Shown: positions 1 to 60,231 of the stretch, piece by piece
Numbering within the stretch: the stretch's first letter is position 1
How the letters are laid out: every line of letters starts with the position of its first letter
From: a virus
DNA: 64,000 nucleotides
Reading direction: 5' to 3' (one strand)
Virus record (IMG/VR): IMGVR_UViG_3300024239_000355
Location: 52,378-116,377 of that record
Program-made: the position numbers and the translations under genes
Notes under the pieces: model-generated
Seen by the model: the letters and a program-made list of their open reading frames with translations, nothing else
Database searches by the model: none
Told to the model about the DNA's origin: nothing

Positions 1-826
1 GCTTCTCGCGGATCACGTCGATCCCGCGCCGCTCAAGCCCTTTCCGGTTATCATAGAACAACACCAAGGCACCAGCCGGGGTGTCTTTGCGACGAAACGC
101 CGTCTCGGTGACTTTGTGTTCAGTCGCCTTGCCGAACCCAGTCCCAACCGAGAAGTAATCCTCCGTGATTCCCTGCGGGGAATACTCGGCACTCTGTGCG
201 GAAGTGGTTGAGAGAGTGGCACTTGCCTGGGTGATCCCCGCATCCATCATCTGCGGTGCCGCACCAACCGCCGTGGCGCCGCTGCCATAGGTTTCCACTG
301 TCTTGGTACTGTCGCACCATGTTGTGGTGTCCCGAACCCACTCGGGGCGCTGCCATGGTGCATACGGACGTTCAATGCGCCACACCGCCGGGGTGATCGG
401 TGGGTAATGAGTATGGATATGCACTTGATGATCGATCTTAGGGATTTCCTGTTCCTCGTACACGAGGAACCCAATCACACCAACGTTCTGCCCACCCTCA
501 CCGGCTTGTTCTGCATAGGCACGCTTGCGGTCTTGGAAGAAGAACTGGGCAACCTTGTCATTGTCAAGACGCCAGCCAGGAATGGTGATCGTGCCGTAAG
601 CGGACACGATGTACCCGCGCGATTCAGGACCGGCTTCCTTGCCGTCCATGACCGACAGCCCATCCACTGACGGGATGACCAGTACGCGCTTGCTGGTGAT
701 GTTGCGGAATTTCAGGGTGAAGTCGGAGCCTTTACGACCCTCGACAAAAATCTGGTTTTCGTGGGTGTATTCACGAACCGGCTTGCCGTTTACAAGAACG
801 GTAGCTTCAAAAGACCCGTTACGCAT
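1..826 (-). CDS. Conserved hypothetical phage protein, 3' end runs off the window
   Basis: Missing from the ORF track because it has no stop in the window. Hand translation from ATG 826 (RBS GGAAGGA): MRNGSFEATVLVNGKPVREY...IPGWRLDNDKVAQFFF...VGVIGFLVYEE...VGTGFGK...LVLFYDNRKGLERRGI, open to the edge. Confidence 0.75.
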   Translation of the reverse strand, partial: MRNGSFEATVLVNGKPVREYTHENQIFVEGRKGSDFTLKFRNITSKRVLVIPSVDGLSVMDGKEAGPESRGYIVSAYGTITIPGWRLDNDKVAQFFFQDRKRAYAEQAGEGGQNVGVIGFLVYEEQEIPKIDHQVHIHTHYPPITPAVWRIERPYAPWQRPEWVRDTTTWCDSTKTVETYGSGATAVGAAPQMMDAGITQASATLSTTSAQSAEYSPQGITEDYFSVGTGFGKATEHKVTETAFRRKDTPAGALVLFYDNRKGLERRGIDVIREK

Positions 827-5482: not shown

Positions 5483-7053
5483 TGTACCTTCCCCCGAATA
5501 AGAGCAACGCTGTCCTTTATCCCGTAGATGGACACAAAGGTACCAAAGCGCGGACCTTGCGTCTTGCCGAACAACACCTCGTAGATCATCTGGAAGAACT
5601 CACGCAGGCGTTCCTTGCCGTAATGAGCCTTGCCGATCTCGTAGATATGGAACTGGATACCTTCCGCATCCAACCCTTGGTCGAGTGTCGCCAACTGAAT
5701 TGCGAGTGCCAGGAGCGCCGTGCGTTCCTGGGCGTTTGGGGTCTTGAACTGCTTGGTCGGCTCGATCTTGTCCACATAGTAGTTGATCGCGCCACGGATC
5801 ATGTCGTCCATCAACGCACGGCTGCCCTCAGGAACCGTCGTATGCTGGTTGACGAAACCCCACAGCACTTCAGGATCACGGCTGTTGGCGACTTCCACCA
5901 AATTCAGCAGCACCCCGAAGGTGATGTCGAAATTGGCATCAGGCACCGCATGCGGATGGATCAGCGAGATTACCTCGGGCATGCCTTCCACCGCAGACAG
6001 ACGGCAAGACTGCAAGTCCTTCAGATAGGCGTCAACCATCTGCGGGACTACATCAAAGTGAACCTTCTTGGCGGTGGTCGGGTTCTGGTACGCGAAATAC
6101 CAAATGACAGCGGCAGGGGCATACTTGAGCCACCGTTCGAGCGAGAACCCATTTCCTTTGGATTTGGATACCTTGTGACCATCCTTGTCGAGAAAGAGTT
6201 CATAGGTCATCAAAATCGGAGGTTCACGACCCAATGCGCGGCAAATTTCTTCTCCGAGACGGGCGGACGGAATCAAGTCCTTGCCATGCATTTCATAATC
6301 AACGTCAATAGCCACCCAACGGGCAGGCCAGTCCGTCTTCCATTGAAGTTTGCAATCACCATCCAAGATCGAATGGGATACATGCTTCTTGCCGCTTTCG
6401 TCGGTGAACGTCATATAGCGCATATGACGCCCTGGAACGCTCGGGTGAACATATGCATTGCGCACATCATGATGTACACGCCCGTCGATAATCGGCAGGA
6501 ACGGAAACCATGTGTTCTGTCGATCTTCGTTGATGCGACCGAGCGTCGGGAGAACAATGCCCTTAATTGCATGCACGTGGTCCGCAACCAAGTTAAGGGT
6601 CTTGTTATATCGACCCGTCTTATAGGCATCGGTGGCAGACAGGAAAATGTAATCGCGGTTGTTCTTCAACCCCAACTTGGCAAGATAATCCGTCATGCCT
6701 GCGTTTATGTACGCCGCGTAGCTTGAATGATGAGTCCCAAAAATATTCGGGATCATTGATACAGGGACACCAATGTATGGTTCAAGCGCAGCTTGTTGCT
6801 CATCGGTGAAGTTCGTCGGGACTTTGCGCAGTGCGTCGTAATCGTCTGAAACGACATAAAGAATCGTCTTGCGTCCAGTAAGACGTTCAAACGCTCGTCG
6901 TACCATAGTCAGACGCAAAATTTCGGAGACTGATCCGAGATGGACAAGTCCACTCGCCCCGAAACCGGCTTCAAAAACAACTGGACGATCTGAAGGATAA
7001 TCCCGTGTCCGCGCAGCAAGCTGCTCCGCTTGCTCTTGCACCCACGATCCCAT
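5479..7053 (-). CDS. lysS: Class I lysyl-tRNA synthetase
   Basis: GFGASGLVHLGS (HIGH-like), VSDDYDALRKVP, KTDWPARW, EMHGKDL, KVSKSKGN (KMSKS), GKTQGPRFG motifs of LysRS1. Confidence 0.93.
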   Translation of the reverse strand: MGSWVQEQAEQLAARTRDYPSDRPVVFEAGFGASGLVHLGSVSEILRLTMVRRAFERLTGRKTILYVVSDDYDALRKVPTNFTDEQQAALEPYIGVPVSMIPNIFGTHHSSYAAYINAGMTDYLAKLGLKNNRDYIFLSATDAYKTGRYNKTLNLVADHVHAIKGIVLPTLGRINEDRQNTWFPFLPIIDGRVHHDVRNAYVHPSVPGRHMRYMTFTDESGKKHVSHSILDGDCKLQWKTDWPARWVAIDVDYEMHGKDLIPSARLGEEICRALGREPPILMTYELFLDKDGHKVSKSKGNGFSLERWLKYAPAAVIWYFAYQNPTTAKKVHFDVVPQMVDAYLKDLQSCRLSAVEGMPEVISLIHPHAVPDANFDITFGVLLNLVEVANSRDPEVLWGFVNQHTTVPEGSRALMDDMIRGAINYYVDKIEPTKQFKTPNAQERTALLALAIQLATLDQGLDAEGIQFHIYEIGKAHYGKERLREFFQMIYEVLFGKTQGPRFGTFVSIYGIKDSVALIRGKVQ

Positions 7054-7067
7054 CGATATCTCCATCG

Positions 7068-7163
7068 GATAAATAGAAATGAGCAGTAAGGTCTTGGGCG
7101 GGCACCCATGACCAACCGCGACGAGAGAAGCGGCTGTCCTGCTCGTACCTATTTAGACGAGAG
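7068..7163 (+). ncRNA. Putative structured RNA element, copy A, between convergent late promoters upstream of a Zn-repeat endonuclease
   Basis: GATAAATAG-N4-GAGCAG-TAA-[hairpin GGTC.TGGG/CCCA.GACC]-AA-[CCGC loop GCGG]-CTGTC-CTGCTC-N4-CTATTTAG; same architecture at 63232-63331. Confidence 0.7.
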
Positions 7164-7171
7164 GTATCAAC

Positions 7172-8071
7172 GTGTCAAGGAAGAAGACGATCAGCGATTT
7201 TATCGCTGAAGCAATTGCCATTCATGGTGACCGCTACGATTACTCCAATGCAAAATACATTGGGGTCAAAAATCCAATAGAAATCAAATGTAAAGATCAC
7301 GGGTCTTTCTTTCAACGTATACATGTTCATTTGAACGGGCATGGCTGTCCGTTGTGTGGTTCGAACCGAAATTCTGTGGATCGATTTCTGGATAGAGCAA
7401 ACAAAATTCATAAAATGAAATATGATTATTCCAAGGTTCTTTACAAGAACCTAACGACGCCAGTCACCATTATTTGCCAAATCCACGGCGATTTCGATCA
7501 ATGTCCCAGAGATCATTTACAAGGATGTGGATGTCCTAAATGTGCAGGACGCAAAAATACAGAAGAATTTGTGCAACAAGCGCATCGTATTCATGGAGCC
7601 TATTACGATTATTCATCTACCACGTATACGGCTGCAAAACATAATGTGACTATACTGTGCCCGCGTCATGGCACATTCACACAGAAAGCCTATGCACATT
7701 TACGTGGGCAGGGTTGTCCATCGTGTTCCAAATGTTCTTCAAAGGCTGAGCAAGCATGGTTAGATCATCACGGAATTCCCGAGGAATACCGCCAATACCC
7801 AATACGGTTGCCAGAATTCAAACGCCCGCTTGTCGTTGATGGGTTCGACCCATCAACGAACACCGTCTACGAGTTCTACGGTGATTTCTGGCATGGTAAT
7901 CCTGCGTTCTTCGATCAATCTAAACCACATCGAGTCGCATCATCAAGACGGGGTACGTATGGTGACGTTTACAATCGAACACTCAAACGGCAAACAATAT
8001 TAGAGAACAATGGGTATAACGTTAAATGGATATGGGAAAGTGAATGGTTGCAAACGTCAAACCAACGATAA
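7172..8071 (+). CDS. Putative homing endonuclease: tandem CxxH/CxxC Zn repeats (DUF723-like) plus Vsr/EDxHD-like nuclease domain
   Basis: Three YDYS...I.C..HG.F.Q....HL.G.GCP.C repeats; C-terminal VDGFD...VYEFYGDFWHG; GTG start with SD GAGG. Confidence 0.8.
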   Translation: MSRKKTISDFIAEAIAIHGDRYDYSNAKYIGVKNPIEIKCKDHGSFFQRIHVHLNGHGCPLCGSNRNSVDRFLDRANKIHKMKYDYSKVLYKNLTTPVTIICQIHGDFDQCPRDHLQGCGCPKCAGRKNTEEFVQQAHRIHGAYYDYSSTTYTAAKHNVTILCPRHGTFTQKAYAHLRGQGCPSCSKCSSKAEQAWLDHHGIPEEYRQYPIRLPEFKRPLVVDGFDPSTNTVYEFYGDFWHGNPAFFDQSKPHRVASSRRGTYGDVYNRTLKRQTILENNGYNVKWIWESEWLQTSNQR

Positions 8072-10632: not shown

Positions 10633-11279
10633 CCTACGTTTGGTCCAACTCCGACCCGAAGCAAGCCTGTCGGGACAAAATCGTGGAAGTTGCCAACCAG
10701 CAGCTTCCACGGGTGCAACAGGTATTCACGTTGCCTTCTGAAGAGGCATTGTGTGCCAAAACGTTTCGATCAACTTGGCCCATGTGTGCCATGGTCGGCG
10801 TGGAGCGACAGAAGGGCATTTTCGAGCGCATGGACCGCAGTAGTGGGATTGTGATGCGTCGGTGTACCCTGCGGGAATACATCGCGTCACAAACCCTCCC
10901 AGAGCATCACTGTGACGTGGCGTTCTTTGACCTTGTTGGACCCGCGTCGCTGCCCAACCTTGGCGACATCGTAGATTTTGTCGCCAATGATCTGGTGGTG
11001 CATCGCAAAAACCCAATGGTGATGGCGGTTACGTTCAACAGCACATTCCGTCATGATCGGGATGCAAACCGTGTGTTGGATGCGATCACAACGGATGTAT
11101 GGCATGAAACCGGGGAATTGATCGGCTATACCATCGAAACGGTAACCGCTCTATTGTGTCAGAAAATCAGGGAACGAACCAGGGTTCGGCGGCTATCCGT
11201 TGTTCACCACGAAAGCTATCAAGCTCAAGATGGGTCAACACCGATGTTCTTCATCATTTTGCTGGTTGAGAAATACTAA
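10629..11279 (+). CDS. Hypothetical protein, possibly a degenerate methyltransferase fold
   Basis: ATGA overlap with the helicase stop; DVAFFDLVG segment followed by alternating beta/alpha pattern (MVMAVTFN, MFFIILLVE). Confidence 0.45.
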   Translation: MTYVWSNSDPKQACRDKIVEVANQQLPRVQQVFTLPSEEALCAKTFRSTWPMCAMVGVERQKGIFERMDRSSGIVMRRCTLREYIASQTLPEHHCDVAFFDLVGPASLPNLGDIVDFVANDLVVHRKNPMVMAVTFNSTFRHDRDANRVLDAITTDVWHETGELIGYTIETVTALLCQKIRERTRVRRLSVVHHESYQAQDGSTPMFFIILLVEKY

Positions 11280-11286
11280 ATACCCC

Positions 11287-11508
11287 ATGCGTATACGAGA
11301 AATTATCGGTGAAAGTACCGACCAACAAACTGTTGAGTTAGAGCGAATACACGATGAAATCCATCGTCTGCGGACCCAGGCAACCCGCATGCGGGAAATC
11401 GGGCGGCTAAACGGGGGTAGTGATACGTTGCCCGATGAGCTTGACGCCCAAGCATCGCGCCTCGAACGGTCGATCAAACGAGATAAAACCGCCGAGAAAG
11501 CTCAGTAA
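11287..11508 (+). CDS. Hypothetical late protein
   Basis: TAAATA 11277-11282, then 4 nt, then ATG; MRIREII start resembles MRIAEIL at 51592. Confidence 0.6.
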   Translation: MRIREIIGESTDQQTVELERIHDEIHRLRTQATRMREIGRLNGGSDTLPDELDAQASRLERSIKRDKTAEKAQ

Positions 11509-11512
11509 CCCC

Positions 11513-11680
11513 TTAGGGAAAGCTTACGGCTTGACGCATGCGACGCATTTCTATCTCTTTCTGGCGGCGTTCAAGATCAACATGATCAACTGCCTGAGAC
11601 AGATACCGTTCGTCTTCGTTCTCTACCGGCGCCCGGAAAATGTCTTTGATGAATGCCCAGATAACAGGAATAACGTGCAT
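11513..11680 (-). CDS. Small DUF3563-like protein
   Basis: ERYLSQAVDHVDLERRQKEI matches the E..YL..S.D..DLE.R pattern; RBS GAGGG. Confidence 0.6.
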   Translation of the reverse strand: MHVIPVIWAFIKDIFRAPVENEDERYLSQAVDHVDLERRQKEIEMRRMRQAVSFP

Positions 11681-11726
11681 AAGTTCCCTCCGATGCTGCA
11701 CCGCAGTATTTAGGAGGGAACCAAAA

Positions 11727-12182
11727 TCATCGTGCTATAGTGATCCCCCAAAAACCAAACGTGCTGGCTACGTCATTCGTCCAAAGATCACCAAGAATTT
11801 CTTGGAGAACGGTTTTTATGTCAGAATATTCTAATGCTTTACACCACGAACCTTCATTTGATTCGCGGCTGAACGACAACCCATATCCAACGTAAAGAAC
11901 CCACGTCGGCGCCTGCTTTTTCTTTAAAATTGGTTCGCCTTCACTAACAACCACGTACTTCCCGAATTTTTCGGATAGTTTTCCCTCGATTGTTTCCCGC
12001 AACGCCTCAAAGTCGTCACAGTAGTAATCGGTTGTGGTATTCCACATTGGCTTTCCACATACCGAGCAGAAATTACCAGTGCTTTCCGGGTGACTACAAC
12101 CGCGACTGCGGGTCGTAGACGGTTCGGGAATATAATTCAGCTTAACCCCGATCATCGCATGATTTTCGTACCACACGCCCAT
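11727..12182 (-). CDS. Hypothetical protein with Zn-ribbon
   Basis: CSH...FCSVCGK motif. Confidence 0.55.
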   Translation of the reverse strand: MGVWYENHAMIGVKLNYIPEPSTTRSRGCSHPESTGNFCSVCGKPMWNTTTDYYCDDFEALRETIEGKLSEKFGKYVVVSEGEPILKKKQAPTWVLYVGYGLSFSRESNEGSWCKALEYSDIKTVLQEILGDLWTNDVASTFGFWGITIAR

Positions 12183-12184
12183 AC

Positions 12185-12439
12185 TTATTCCCCAAACATC
12201 AATTTTTCACGGAATTCCTTGGTGATGATGGACATCCCAAAGGTTATTTCTGCCATTTGCCGGGCGAGAATGGGAATTGCCGCTTTATGAATAGCGGAAT
12301 AGGTGTCACTAAACCCAAGATCACGCAACGCAAATGAAAGTTCAGAGGTTCGTCCCATATATATTGCCGTCAGTCGTTCAATTGCCAGACGAACAGCAGC
12401 ATCATATTCCTTGGTTCCGGGAACAGGACGATCACTCAT
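12185..12439 (-). CDS. Hypothetical protein
   Basis: ORF with ATGA overlap to the upstream 59-aa ORF. Confidence 0.55.
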   Translation of the reverse strand: MSDRPVPGTKEYDAAVRLAIERLTAIYMGRTSELSFALRDLGFSDTYSAIHKAAIPILARQMAEITFGMSIITKEFREKLMFGE

Positions 12440-12615
12440 TTCTGTTTCCATCGCCAACAATTGTTCTCAAATACCATGGTTTCTTTCTTACAATATTTGC
12501 AAGTGTGTGTATCGCCCTCTTTCGGCGGGATGGTTGCCTCCAACATCGCTTCATCAATACTGGCGAGACAGCACCGAAACAGACCGCCGATATGAACATT
12601 GTATTCTTGTGCCAT
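12436..12615 (-). CDS. Small Cys-rich protein (59 aa, not in ORF track)
   Basis: Hand translation MAQEYNVHIGGLFRCCLASIDEAM...TCKYCKKETMVFENNCWRWKQK; starts right after the argS stop and fills the gap exactly. Confidence 0.6.
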   Translation of the reverse strand: MAQEYNVHIGGLFRCCLASIDEAMLEATIPPKEGDTHTCKYCKKETMVFENNCWRWKQK

Positions 12616-56798: not shown

Positions 56799-57209
56799 TT
56801 AGAGAACTTCGTTACGAACAACGGCGACGTTGTTGCCGCTGGTGTCACCAACGGAGAAGGAGAAACCTTCGATACCGTCGAGAGCCAGAGCAAGGTCTTC
56901 ACCATCTTCACCCCAAGCACGGGTATGCTCGATGGCGAACTTGAAGGTGTAGACCGAAACCGTTGCGCCAGTGCCAGCAGCCGGGAGGTCGGCAATCGGA
57001 CCAGTCTCGCTGGTGACGGTTACATCGCTCAGAATGACCGGCTGGGCACGCAGGTTGATGGTCTCAACCAGCTTGTCCAGGCTGTGCTGGGAAGCGTTAG
57101 CCGGGTTGCCAGTAACGCGAATGTCCACAAGGGTGCGGACAGTGAAGAAGTCCATATTGCCGGTAAGCTTCTCACCAGCGAAAACGTGACCGTGAACCTT
57201 CTCTACCAT
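56799..57209 (-). CDS. Probable virion structural protein
   Basis: Highly biased codon usage, strong RBS AGGAG, late promoter upstream, terminator downstream (~56750-56785). Confidence 0.6.
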   Translation of the reverse strand: MVEKVHGHVFAGEKLTGNMDFFTVRTLVDIRVTGNPANASQHSLDKLVETINLRAQPVILSDVTVTSETGPIADLPAAGTGATVSVYTFKFAIEHTRAWGEDGEDLALALDGIEGFSFSVGDTSGNNVAVVRNEVL

Positions 57210-57367
57210 GGTAATCTCCTAAATTTCAATTATGGGTTCGGGGTGATCCCTTCTGAAATTATTTAGCATCAATTTTTGAAGACTATTGGAAACCAGCTTT
57301 TCTGCGGTTTTTAACCCTTGGTCTTGTATTTATTCACTTACACATGAGGTGTAAGCTAAATAGAATT

Positions 57368-58429
57368 ATGTGGCTTACATATCGATATCGCCTATACCCA
57401 ACTACTACCCAGAAAGCAGCAATTCACCGTATTTGTGGAAGCCAGCGGTGGGTGTGGAACATGCTGCTCGGGTTGAACATCAAACGATACCGAGAACGGC
57501 GGGACGTATTGTCATATCCGCAGATGTGCGAAAAACTTCCCTTGCTCAAAACCCAATGCCCATGGCTTAAAGAAGTTCCATCACAAGCATTGCAGTATGT
57601 AGCGCGTGAACTCGACCGGGAAATTCAGTGGCACCTACGCAACACGCAGTCGTTTCCTACCTTTCGTAAGAAAAAGGAAGCGCACGGCAAGTTCACCGTT
57701 CCTCAATTTGTGAAGCCGGGCACCAAGACCATTACGATCCCGAAAGTCGGGGAAGTGCCATGGATTCGCCATAGCGACCATACACCAATCAACGGCGGGT
57801 CGGTTGTGTGGGATGGGGACCGGTACTTCATCGAGTTCCGGATAGAAATTACCCAGCGCCAACCCAAACGTGACATCCCAAAGACGCAGGCAATTGGTCT
57901 TGTTCTTGGATCGGAGCATTTCCTGACTGACTCGAACGGGGAGCAAATTACTATTCCCCCTACCGTCCCCAAAGCCACGGCACGCCTGGAACGACTTCAA
58001 CGACAAATGAAGCGCAAGAAAAATGGGAACAATCAGATCAAATTAGGAAAAGTAATCCGATGCCAGGAAATGCATCTTGCAGATGCGCGTCGAGATTTCT
58101 TTCACAAAATCAGTCGCTATCTATTGATTCGCAACGACCTCATTTGTGTTGAAAACTCTCTGAGAACCAAAGAGGGTGATCTGTTCGTGGCGATTCTCAA
58201 GGGAAAAGCAGAACGGTACGGTAAAAAGGTCATCGTGATCGACCGTTTTCATCCGTCCCATCTAACCTGTCATGCCTGTGGACAAAAAGAAGTCACCATG
58301 ACCGGGTGCGGTTCTTGCGGCACTACGTTCAGTCCATGGATCAATGGAGCCATAAACGCCCTGGAATGGGGCTACAAACAATACCGCCGGGGCGGCGGTA
58401 ATCTACGCCTTTCAGATACGAGTGCGTAA
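57368..58429 (+). CDS. tnpB: IS200/IS605-family TnpB homologue with inactivated RuvC (TldR-like); no TnpA nearby
   Basis: YRYRLYPT..Q HTH, R.V.N, FP.FRKK, FFHKIS, Zn finger CHACG...CGSCG. RuvC-I reads IGLVLG (D to V), RuvC-II VEN (E kept, following segment shortened), RuvC-III SPWINGAIN (DRD.NAA.N Asp lost). Confidence 0.85.
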   Translation: MWLTYRYRLYPTTTQKAAIHRICGSQRWVWNMLLGLNIKRYRERRDVLSYPQMCEKLPLLKTQCPWLKEVPSQALQYVARELDREIQWHLRNTQSFPTFRKKKEAHGKFTVPQFVKPGTKTITIPKVGEVPWIRHSDHTPINGGSVVWDGDRYFIEFRIEITQRQPKRDIPKTQAIGLVLGSEHFLTDSNGEQITIPPTVPKATARLERLQRQMKRKKNGNNQIKLGKVIRCQEMHLADARRDFFHKISRYLLIRNDLICVENSLRTKEGDLFVAILKGKAERYGKKVIVIDRFHPSHLTCHACGQKEVTMTGCGSCGTTFSPWINGAINALEWGYKQYRRGGGNLRLSDTSA

Positions 58430-58510
58430 GTCCAAGTAGTCGGAAGACCAATTGGCCGCATTCGGGGAAGGAAGCCGCAAGGCAGCCCACACCAGTGTAC
58501 CTTGATATCT
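58380..58510 (+). ncRNA. Putative omegaRNA scaffold (to ~58490) plus ~20-nt guide (58491-58510)
   Basis: TACCGCCGGGGCGGCGGTAATCTACGCC...TAAGTCC...GGAAGGAAGCC-GCAA-GGCAGCCCAC resembles IS605 right-end RNAs; the following ACCAGTGTACCTTGATATCT fills the gap to the convergent stop. Confidence 0.55.
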
Positions 58511-60231
58511 TACCGCCGAATAAGTACCGGCTTCGCAGGTTTCTTCTTTTTGCCTTTCTTAGGCGGGTAAATCGAAGCATTCGGGTCGCCTGCACCCAAC
58601 GCGGTGGCAGCAGTCGCGACACAGCCCGCTGTGGTGCCGTTTTCGATGATGGTGTTACCCTGGTGTTGGAATGACGGCCCAACGAAGCCAGCGCGGGCGC
58701 TAACGCCCTTATTGGCGGTACCCGGCGGATCGTACTTAATGTGCTTCTCTGCCTTATCGAAACCAGCATCATCGGACTGGTAATTACCCTTTGTCCGTTT
58801 CTTCTTGGCTTCGTCAACCATGCTCTTATAGGCATCTCCAAGAGCCTCTTCGGGTTCATTACCCTCAACATCCCCACCCGCAGCCATGGTATCTCCCCAC
58901 TTTTTAAAGGATACCGAAACGGCTTCTGGTTTAGATGGTTTTGTTGGCTGTGTGGCAATTGGGGTATCGAATACGTTCAGATCACCTTCAACGTCATCTT
59001 CCGTTGCAAACTCAAATTCGTTCGTATCGGTCTCATCTTCACGGTGATTAATTTCAAAATACATCACCGGCTCGTGACCAAATTTCTTAGTAAACATTCG
59101 GACGATATCAACCGCATCATAGTCCAACTCAGCAGCCACGCCCGCAACGATATCATTGATTAATGCAGAATACGGACCAAAAATTGCATTCTTGTCACGC
59201 AGATACTTGCTCATTTTAGACAGAACTCGATTAGCGATCTTGTCCTCGTCATCAGAGGCGTCCTTTTCAGGTGCTACCGTATCATGTCGCACATTATATT
59301 TACGCAGTACGTCATCGGTGTAAGACGGCTCGTGATTTGGTTCAGCGTTGTTTGGTACCGCCGTATCAGTACGGGGTGGAAGCGATGCATAAATGGACGG
59401 ATCATCACTGACCGGGGCTTCCGCTCCATCGACTTCCGTTCCGTCAACATCAGCCGATTCGCCCATATGCATCAACTTACGCCCAAGTTTATACCCGAGA
59501 TAAGTCGCACCCAATACCGCAGCACCTTTCAGAAGCTTATTACCAGACCCAGATGCCCCAGTGGTTCCGGTGTTGGTTTCGGGATTATTAACCCCTTTAA
59601 GCTCAAGTTTTTGTGCCTTTGCCAGTTGTTCCAAATACGGAAGAAGCTCACTTTTCTTGGCTCGGGTACGGAGAGCCAAAAGAAGCCGCGTCATTGTAAG
59701 CTGCTTTTCGGAATGATTTAGGTCTTCCCAATCTATAATCAAACGACGAATTGCGCGATAACCCGAATCCCGTATATTAAGAGCATTTTCCATTTTAAGC
59801 AAAAAACGTCGATCCATGTTAATATCAGTATCATTTTGCGCCACCATCCGAAGCCAGCGCACAATATCAACTTCACGAGCATCTACATCTTCAAGATGAG
59901 TGCGGCTGGCATCCGGTTTCTTGTACTTTCCCTCATTGCCATTTAACAATTGAAATAACAGCAAATAAAGATCGGTACCCATACGCCGAAGCTGCTTAAA
60001 ATGTCCATACATAACGGTTGCCTTGGCGTATTTGGCTGCCACAGGCGCGAAATCAAACTCGCTCTTAAGAATTTTCAAGGAGAGAAGATAGAGGAAGATA
60101 AAATCCGTGACATCTTTGGCAGTATAATTACCAAATGCCTTTTCGTTACGGATCAAGGTAGACTCAAGCATACCGTCCACAACTTGATATTCGCCGTCTA
60201 CGAAATTATTCAGAAAGGTCTTCTCGCTCAT
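58510..60231 (-). CDS. Conserved virion-associated-type protein
   Basis: TAAATA 60260-60265 with SD GAGG in a hairpin (60235-60261); C-terminal ENGTTAG.VA...K-rich RR end. Confidence 0.6.
   Translation of the reverse strand: MSEKTFLNNFVDGEYQVVDGMLESTLIRNEKAFGNYTAKDVTDFIFLYLLSLKILKSEFDFAPVAAKYAKATVMYGHFKQLRRMGTDLYLLLFQLLNGNEGKYKKPDASRTHLEDVDAREVDIVRWLRMVAQNDTDINMDRRFLLKMENALNIRDSGYRAIRRLIIDWEDLNHSEKQLTMTRLLLALRTRAKKSELLPYLEQLAKAQKLELKGVNNPETNTGTTGASGSGNKLLKGAAVLGATYLGYKLGRKLMHMGESADVDGTEVDGAEAPVSDDPSIYASLPPRTDTAVPNNAEPNHEPSYTDDVLRKYNVRHDTVAPEKDASDDEDKIANRVLSKMSKYLRDKNAIFGPYSALINDIVAGVAAELDYDAVDIVRMFTKKFGHEPVMYFEINHREDETDTNEFEFATEDDVEGDLNVFDTPIATQPTKPSKPEAVSVSFKKWGDTMAAGGDVEGNEPEEALGDAYKSMVDEAKKKRTKGNYQSDDAGFDKAEKHIKYDPPGTANKGVSARAGFVGPSFQHQGNTIIENGTTAGCVATAATALGAGDPNASIYPPKKGKKKKPAKPVLIRR

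Follow-up and report, generated by a model that had tools for sequence, protein, structure and literature searches.

The 64,000-nucleotide stretch of viral DNA analysed here (the window, which lies within a 195-kb phage record) carries, between two blocks of minus-strand genes, a single long plus-strand ORF (57344/57368-58429), and this ORF encodes a protein of the TnpB family. The question raised by the locus is what a TnpB whose nuclease appears to be dead would do for a large phage. The original prediction held that the gene arose by an independent domestication inside a virion-gene block, that it lies behind a late promoter and that its product is an RNA-guided regulator. [quoted passage not shown] TldRs are polyphyletic, and some of the 506 proteins reported are phage-borne. 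The features of the locus are collected in Table 1.

Table 1. Coordinates of the features at the dead tnpB locus (window positions)
Feature	Position	Strand	Remark
p136, 136-aa gene	56799..57209	-	divergent neighbour of the dead tnpB in 3/3 phages
TAAATA promoter of p136	57260-57265	-	
7-bp hairpin CTTACAC-ATGAG-GTGTAAG	57337..57355		between the plus-strand TAAATA and the minus-strand AATAAATA (57327-57334)
TAAATA promoter-like motif	57357..57362	+	5 nt before ATG
Nuclease-dead TnpB-family gene	57368..58429	+	353 aa; stop 58427-58429; frame unbroken
V179 codon	57902-57904	+	
E262 codon	58151-58153	+	
Lid-region deletion	after codon 263 (58154-58156)	+	~19 alignment columns gone behind E262-N263
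W324 codon	58337-58339	+	
Omega-RNA scaffold, ~128 nt	58364..58491	+	overlaps last 66 ORF nt; ends ...GCAGCCCACA
Candidate guide, ~19 nt	58492..58509	+	start uncertain by 1-2 nt; placed by scaffold homology
p573, convergent gene	58510..60231	-	ORF start possible up to 60552 upstream

The TnpB protein and its active site

The length of 353 aa is counted from the ATG at 57368, and the equivalent Met is used by the orthologues in three other loci (L002, L009 and L010); gene callers choose a later ATG, which yields 322 aa. The protein has Pfam-type matches to HTH_OrfB_IS605 (residues 3-45), OrfB_IS605 and Cas12f1-like_TNB, it scores 165 bits against NCBIfam guided_TnpB (cut-off 100), and it is also matched by PHROG 506 'transposase'. 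An AlphaFold2 model, for which the input was an 80-sequence alignment of the best matches among 1.84 billion representative proteins, is confident throughout (pLDDT 93.3, pTM 0.85), and its top structural match by Foldseek is the ISDra2 TnpB ternary complex (8h1j_A, TM 0.81/0.79). The uninterrupted TnpB frame of the original prediction is confirmed. Its other observation, that tnpA is absent, extends to the whole 195-kb record, in which no Y1 transposase was found; tnpB itself is single copy in that record, and no second copy was found.

Alignment to ISDra2 TnpB had been proposed as a check on the claim that two of the three RuvC acidic residues are replaced, and it upholds that claim. In the phmmer alignment with ISDra2 TnpB (8bf8/8h1j), D191 pairs with V179 in the GLVLG segment of RuvC-I and D361 pairs with W324 in the SPWING segment of RuvC-III, while E278 pairs with E262 (CVEN), so that the Glu is kept. 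Across the 80-sequence alignment, the three catalytic columns hold D, E and D in 76/80, 79/80 and 76/80 sequences, respectively. The Arg that precedes the third Asp, conserved in 76/80, is Pro in the window protein; the zinc-finger cysteines are present in the window protein and in its L002 orthologue. Neither the intact D-E-D RuvC triad of an active IS200/IS605 TnpB element nor the signs of its mobility (a TnpA partner, multiple copies, variable sites) were found. Judged by its sequence, the window protein is a RuvC-dead TnpB; in the model, the TnpB fold is whole and the catalytic centre alone is missing.

The RNA scaffold and the candidate guide

The original prediction pointed to an IS605-like RNA region at the 3' end of the gene, followed by ~20 nt before the convergent stop. 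This region ends GGCAGCCCAC at 58490, leaving 19-20 nt to the convergent stop (58510-58512), and the scaffold comprises the final 66 nt of the ORF and a further 62 nt beyond it; it can be aligned both to L002 and to the 3' end of an intact relative in L010. When the window is compared with L002 by blastn, 58132-58491 align and the similarity breaks off exactly after ...CCCACA; third-position identity with L002 climbs from codon 256 on. A consensus fold for the three-sequence alignment (window, L002 and L010) has 33 pairs, with 96% of cells paired. Eleven of these pairs are compensatory (both sides changed), versus 0-2 in controls with the partners displaced by 1-3 columns, and 11 double-changed pairs were reached in 0/500 shuffles. 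A covariance model built from the same three sequences scores the window (58364-58493) at 149 bits, L002 at 144 and L010 at 128; further matches (21-35 bits) fall precisely on the 3' ends of six other phage tnpB genes. In L009, the RNA is eroded (31.5 bits): just the 5' part and the closing helix are left, and 29 nt stand in place of the central 58 model positions, so that a full-scoring scaffold is found in two of the three members of the dead clade. No Rfam family was matched in an Rfam search. The covariation and the model's matches at tnpB 3' ends show that a bona fide omega-RNA scaffold is retained beside the dead TnpB.

The first hairpin of the omega-RNA (CCGCCG-GGG-CGGCGG, window 58382-58400), read on the minus strand, has a T-rich run behind it and is scored as an intrinsic terminator, at which p573 transcription could also end. 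(Contigs of the locus from RNA libraries are short, of low depth and picked by the query itself; they are probably DNA carry-over.)

The candidate guide falls in the 3' untranslated tail of the convergent gene. The post-scaffold sequences of the window and L002 diverge, and their guides are unlike at the seed end; once one stretch is shifted by 5 nt, 12/19 positions agree. In L002, the post-scaffold DNA (L002:11113-11141) doubles as a sigma-70-like promoter (TTGACA-17-TATTGT), and this promoter precedes an extra 177-aa gene (11165-11698) that is absent from the window phage. Guide matches were sought with start offsets from -1 to +2 in the 195-kb record, in 10 kb past its start and in 2.2 Mb of related loci. 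All hits were 11-13-mers at chance level. No match of at least 13 nt was found in the ~205 kb of phage DNA (the record plus 10 kb, about two-thirds of the genome); the related loci gave a lone 13-nt match, at chance level, inside a Nudix gene of L002; and matches of 12 nt with a perfect 6-nt seed in the same DNA are at chance level and have no common flank. The left flank yielded no TAM, since the three loci share one insertion and no left end could be delimited for the intact tnpB of L010. Since neither a guide target nor a TAM was found in these searches, the repression of a host or phage promoter that the original prediction suggested is something that we infer.

Relatives, insertion site and promoter region

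The same phage, with 100% identity over 57200-58620, is represented by at least ten contigs, which come from subsurface, soil and wastewater samples. Among 1.8 billion representative proteins, the RuvC lesions are common to just two relatives, both encoded by other large phages. The first, P0002 (L002), is 48% identical and has D->A and D->M replacements, with the E kept; the second, P0027 (L009), is 38% identical and has D->V and E->S, has lost the zinc finger and the third motif, and retains the C-terminal GYKQYRCGGG. The deletion after the Glu position is common to all three dead proteins. Searches of GenBank phages, IMG/VR (by DNA pattern and protein motif), GTDB genomes and JGI metagenomes gave no further clade members, the closest proteins there being ~34% identical at most. 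In a maximum-likelihood tree, the three dead proteins form one clade (100/99), with the L009 protein on a long branch, and the sister of this clade (100/95) is the intact P0026 of L010, in which DED is present and which is 38% identical. Because the three dead proteins are monophyletic beside an intact sister, a single inactivation in their common ancestor is the simplest reading.

The insertion site is also the same in all three phages, amid homologues of p573 and p136; the p136 proteins are 60-73% identical among the three, and in L009 the p573 homologue is a 252-aa gene that matches the N-terminus of p573. In relatives that have no TnpB (L174-L177, L180, L199 and L200), the p573 homologue lies directly upstream of p136 on one strand, and the elements ahead of p136 there are TATAAATA, a hairpin in the 5' UTR and a Shine-Dalgarno sequence. 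The shared site in three phages together with the empty arrangement in relatives indicates one entry of TnpB into this spacer, where it was retained.

Whether the gene has been retained for its protein bears on the alternative of a homing TnpB that persists as a relic in slow decay because its intergenic slot is tolerated, with a functionless protein and a 3' end that is constrained in some other way, e.g. as a bidirectional terminator for the convergent gene. The erosion in L009 (Glu->Ser, loss of the zinc finger, a shortened RNA and a long branch), the likeness of the first scaffold hairpin, on the minus strand, to an intrinsic terminator of the convergent gene and the great rarity of the clade all fit such a relic. 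However, the comparison of the window with L002 gives a pN of 0.37, far under a saturated pS of 0.80 (Fisher p = 1e-31), with third-position identity near random along most of the gene and all 353 codons of the window frame open. The 48% identity of the two TnpB proteins falls inside the 28-67% range of neighbouring phage genes from the same genome pair, a level on par with that of neighbouring core genes, and the best-conserved part of the protein is its N-terminal RNA/DNA-binding domains. These rates and the neighbour-like conservation argue for a selected gene and against neutral decay, so that a gene under purifying selection, not a relic, is what the substitution pattern points to. In addition, the AlphaFold2 model is confident along the whole length, and the compensatory changes span the entire scaffold, not a single hairpin. 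A relic is consequently unlikely. The original prediction had named three findings that would tell against it, namely intact catalytic Asp residues, frameshifts or neutral decay in relatives, and the lack of both a bound guide RNA and a target; all three were examined as far as computation reaches and none refuted it, and the selection and synteny comparison that it had proposed (rates and a common site in three phages) came out in its favour.

The gene is preceded by a TAAATA motif, and the spacer up to the ATG is 5 nt long in the window, L009 and L010 and 6 nt in L002. Across the 195-kb record, 45/206 crude ORFs have TAAATA at most 60 nt upstream, versus ~4 expected; nine ORFs with a length of 50 codons or more show the exact arrangement TAAATA-N5-ATG, among them one for a GIY-YIG endonuclease. 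In T4, the late promoter is TATAAATA at -13 to -6. With such a placement, +1 would be the A of the ATG, and a leaderless mRNA is predicted; TAAATA-N5-ATG is thus predicted to be a recurrent leaderless promoter class in this phage. Of the promoter claim in the original prediction, the motif, its spacing and its recurrence stand, and the promoter is T4-like and probably late, with 'late' being what we infer from that likeness. The same arrangement is found on the intact P0026, and it is therefore a feature of this TnpB lineage and was not gained at domestication. (ORFs of the N5 class begin at record (G000) positions 5876, 9279, 16768, 38871, 53796 (window 1419), 82123 (window 29746), 181368 and 190852; several start alike, with MRIxEI/MRxxEL, and may be a paralogous family, and one is the GIY-YIG endonuclease gene, next to tuf.)

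The 7-bp hairpin upstream of the motif had been proposed as a remnant of the transposon left end. It is kept in L002, and another stem (TTTACC/GGTAAA) is found at the same place in L009. However, L010, with its intact TnpB, has no hairpin immediately before TAAATA, and L205, which has no TnpB, has a similar hairpin that overlaps TAAATA and drives an unrelated divergent gene beside p136. A left end is thus disfavoured, and the hairpin is better read as part of a divergent promoter region.

Possible functions and known counterparts

The reading that we favour, with modest confidence, as the most likely mechanism is RNA-guided, non-cleaving binding of DNA that blocks transcription. An IS200/IS605-type TnpB element circulating in large phages would have inserted once between p573 and p136; its nuclease would have been lost in the common ancestor of the three phage lineages, and TnpB would have been kept as a phage gene. 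A leaderless mRNA of the dead tnpB is probably made from the T4-type TAAATA promoter. The omega-RNA scaffold would form by folding of its 3' end (58364-58491), with a guide of 9-19 nt that begins at about 58492. The resulting ribonucleoprotein may then bind complementary, TAM-flanked DNA without cutting it and block transcription as TldRs do, and its target could be the host, a co-infecting phage or an unsequenced part of the same phage. The failure to find a guide target in the DNA searched, the small size of the clade (three members only), the eroded RNA and protein of L009 and the lack of a host-derived partner gene, such as accompanies the fliC and oppF TldRs, speak against this explanation.

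It is quite unlikely that the protein has instead been domesticated as a DNA- or RNA-binding protein with a role other than guide-directed repression, perhaps as a sequence-specific regulator of the p136/tnpB promoter region, acting through its HTH/WED domains, or as a chaperone for antisense RNA against the 3' end of p573. Such roles would fit the pairing with p136 and the shared divergent promoter region with its conserved palindrome, strict in 3/3 phages, as well as transcription from the tnpB promoter that runs antisense into the 3' end of p573 and the retention of the protein in L009 with a reduced RNA. The palindrome, however, is found without TnpB too, and two lineages have kept the full scaffold, with covariation, at saturated synonymous divergence. 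Because covariation persists despite this divergence, retention of the scaffold is hard to explain unless the protein still uses RNA.

If the protein is an RNA-guided binder, it might be aimed at the empty site of related phages that lack the element and serve as a factor in competition or exclusion between phages. The ancestral guide of any TnpB is the flank of its right end, and the ancestral target was therefore the empty site, where TAM and flank adjoin each other; moreover, the empty sites of relatives lie immediately upstream of the p136 late promoter, and the partial likeness of the post-scaffold DNA in the window and L002 (the shifted match described above) would fit. Yet no close empty-site relative was found and those available have no guide match, the two guides differ at their seed ends, and in L002 the 177-aa gene now sits beside the guide, which indicates that the flank has changed. 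Such a target is distinctly improbable, and the more specific proposal that the dead TnpB and its guide RNA form an inter-phage weapon, silencing a competitor's essential late gene near the p136 promoter, is very doubtful; in that proposal, the carrier would be immune because the element splits its own site. Finally, it is hardly credible that the protein is still an active nuclease with a rearranged catalytic site, as could be supposed from the Glu262 and zinc-finger cysteines kept in the window and L002, since both Asp positions are hydrophobic and differ by orthologue (V/A/V; W/M/absent), Pro replaces the Arg beside the third Asp, the segment behind the Glu is deleted, the Glu is missing too in L009, and there is one copy only and no tnpA.

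Guide-directed repression would place the window gene among the TldRs. Like them, it is derived from TnpB in homology and fold, has lost RuvC catalytic residues clade-wide, has no transposase or transposon context, occupies a fixed genomic position under purifying selection, and lies next to an omega-RNA-derived scaffold (weak in L009) followed by a short candidate guide; the progressive loss of RuvC and ZnF is seen here in L009. As judged from these characters, the gene has every sequence-level feature of a TldR save a promoter target. It differs from the known TldRs in that it belongs to an independent clade, its nearest intact relative being P0026, in that it lies between two large-phage genes and not beside fliC, oppF or csrA, in that its predicted promoter is T4-like, TAAATA-type and leaderless, and in that the window protein keeps the Glu and the zinc finger. 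The independent domestication of the original prediction is upheld by the separate clade, the fixed site in three phages and the purifying selection, and the gene is probably a new, rare TldR branch in a new setting rather than a new kind of system.

Two intact TnpBs and one dead effector provide further comparisons. With ISDra2 TnpB (PDB 8h1j, 8exa and 8bf8), the window protein shares domain order and fold (TM 0.81), and in both the scaffold RNA begins inside the 3' part of the gene, with the guide behind the scaffold; unlike ISDra2, the window protein has Val and Trp at the D191 and D361 equivalents and a deletion behind the E278 equivalent, and its gene is single copy, with neither TnpA nor recognisable transposon ends. 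The intact P0026, from a metagenomic contig (L010), is a sister lineage with a homologous omega-RNA, the TAAATA-N5-ATG start and a C-terminal WGYKQY motif; unlike the window protein, it has the DED triad and the lid segment intact, and its gene lies in a context of AAA/DUF2201 genes with no hairpin immediately before TAAATA. A natural nuclease-dead Cas12f with a sigma-E partner (Hoffmann et al., PMC13472631) is likewise a dead RNA-guided binder of the TnpB/Cas12f family that was exapted for transcription control. That protein is an activator of transcription that works with a dedicated sigma factor and CRISPR-type guides (PMC13472631), whereas the window has neither a sigma-factor partner nor an array.

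Few clades of TldR-type regulators are known, with roles worked out for flagellin and oligopeptide transport only. The present locus adds an independently domesticated clade in large uncultured phages, one without a host-derived partner gene, and with 353 aa and a ~128-nt scaffold it represents a compact natural dead effector. Without a target it is a well-supported annotation and not the discovery of a mechanism; a target, if found, would reveal the job of an RNA-programmed DNA binder in large-phage infection, which could be host shut-off, the timing of the phage's own genes or competition with other phages.

The surroundings of the locus provide several further observations. The 'virion-gene block' of the original prediction holds in part: a virion structural protein and a possible tail-terminator-like gene are present, intermixed with genes for RNR, an exonuclease, Nudix and homing endonucleases. 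An 869,618-bp metagenomic contig that overlaps the record (L005; ENA ERZ27245855 k141_178484) has the identical dead-TnpB gene 3.4 kb from one of its ends. The DNA past the start of the 195-kb record (L202) is phage-like, with ClpX-like and Smr genes and many uncharacterised ORFs, and a walk beyond the record start met further phage-like genes only and no host DNA. The phage extends beyond the record; either the 'provirus' label or the 869.6-kb contig is perhaps artefactual, or else the genome could be very large.

Many large phages, with contigs of up to 561 kb, have a p136-family member as a core gene. The elements ahead of it always come in one order: a TATAAATA-type motif, a hairpin in the 5' UTR (variable in stem sequence, preserved in pairing) and a strong Shine-Dalgarno sequence (window 57210-57270); a protein-language-model search gives a weak lead that suggests a tail-terminator/Gp37-like protein. 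The p136 neighbourhood also draws other insertions. L178 has another TnpB (27% identity) immediately downstream of p136 (6383-7453, minus strand), and the unrelated divergent gene of L205 lies upstream of p136 (2-85, minus strand). In L009, a 254-aa protein with several HTH or sigma-70 region-4-like repeats (11740-12504, minus strand) is encoded two genes from the dead tnpB, and it has no homologue in the 195-kb record.
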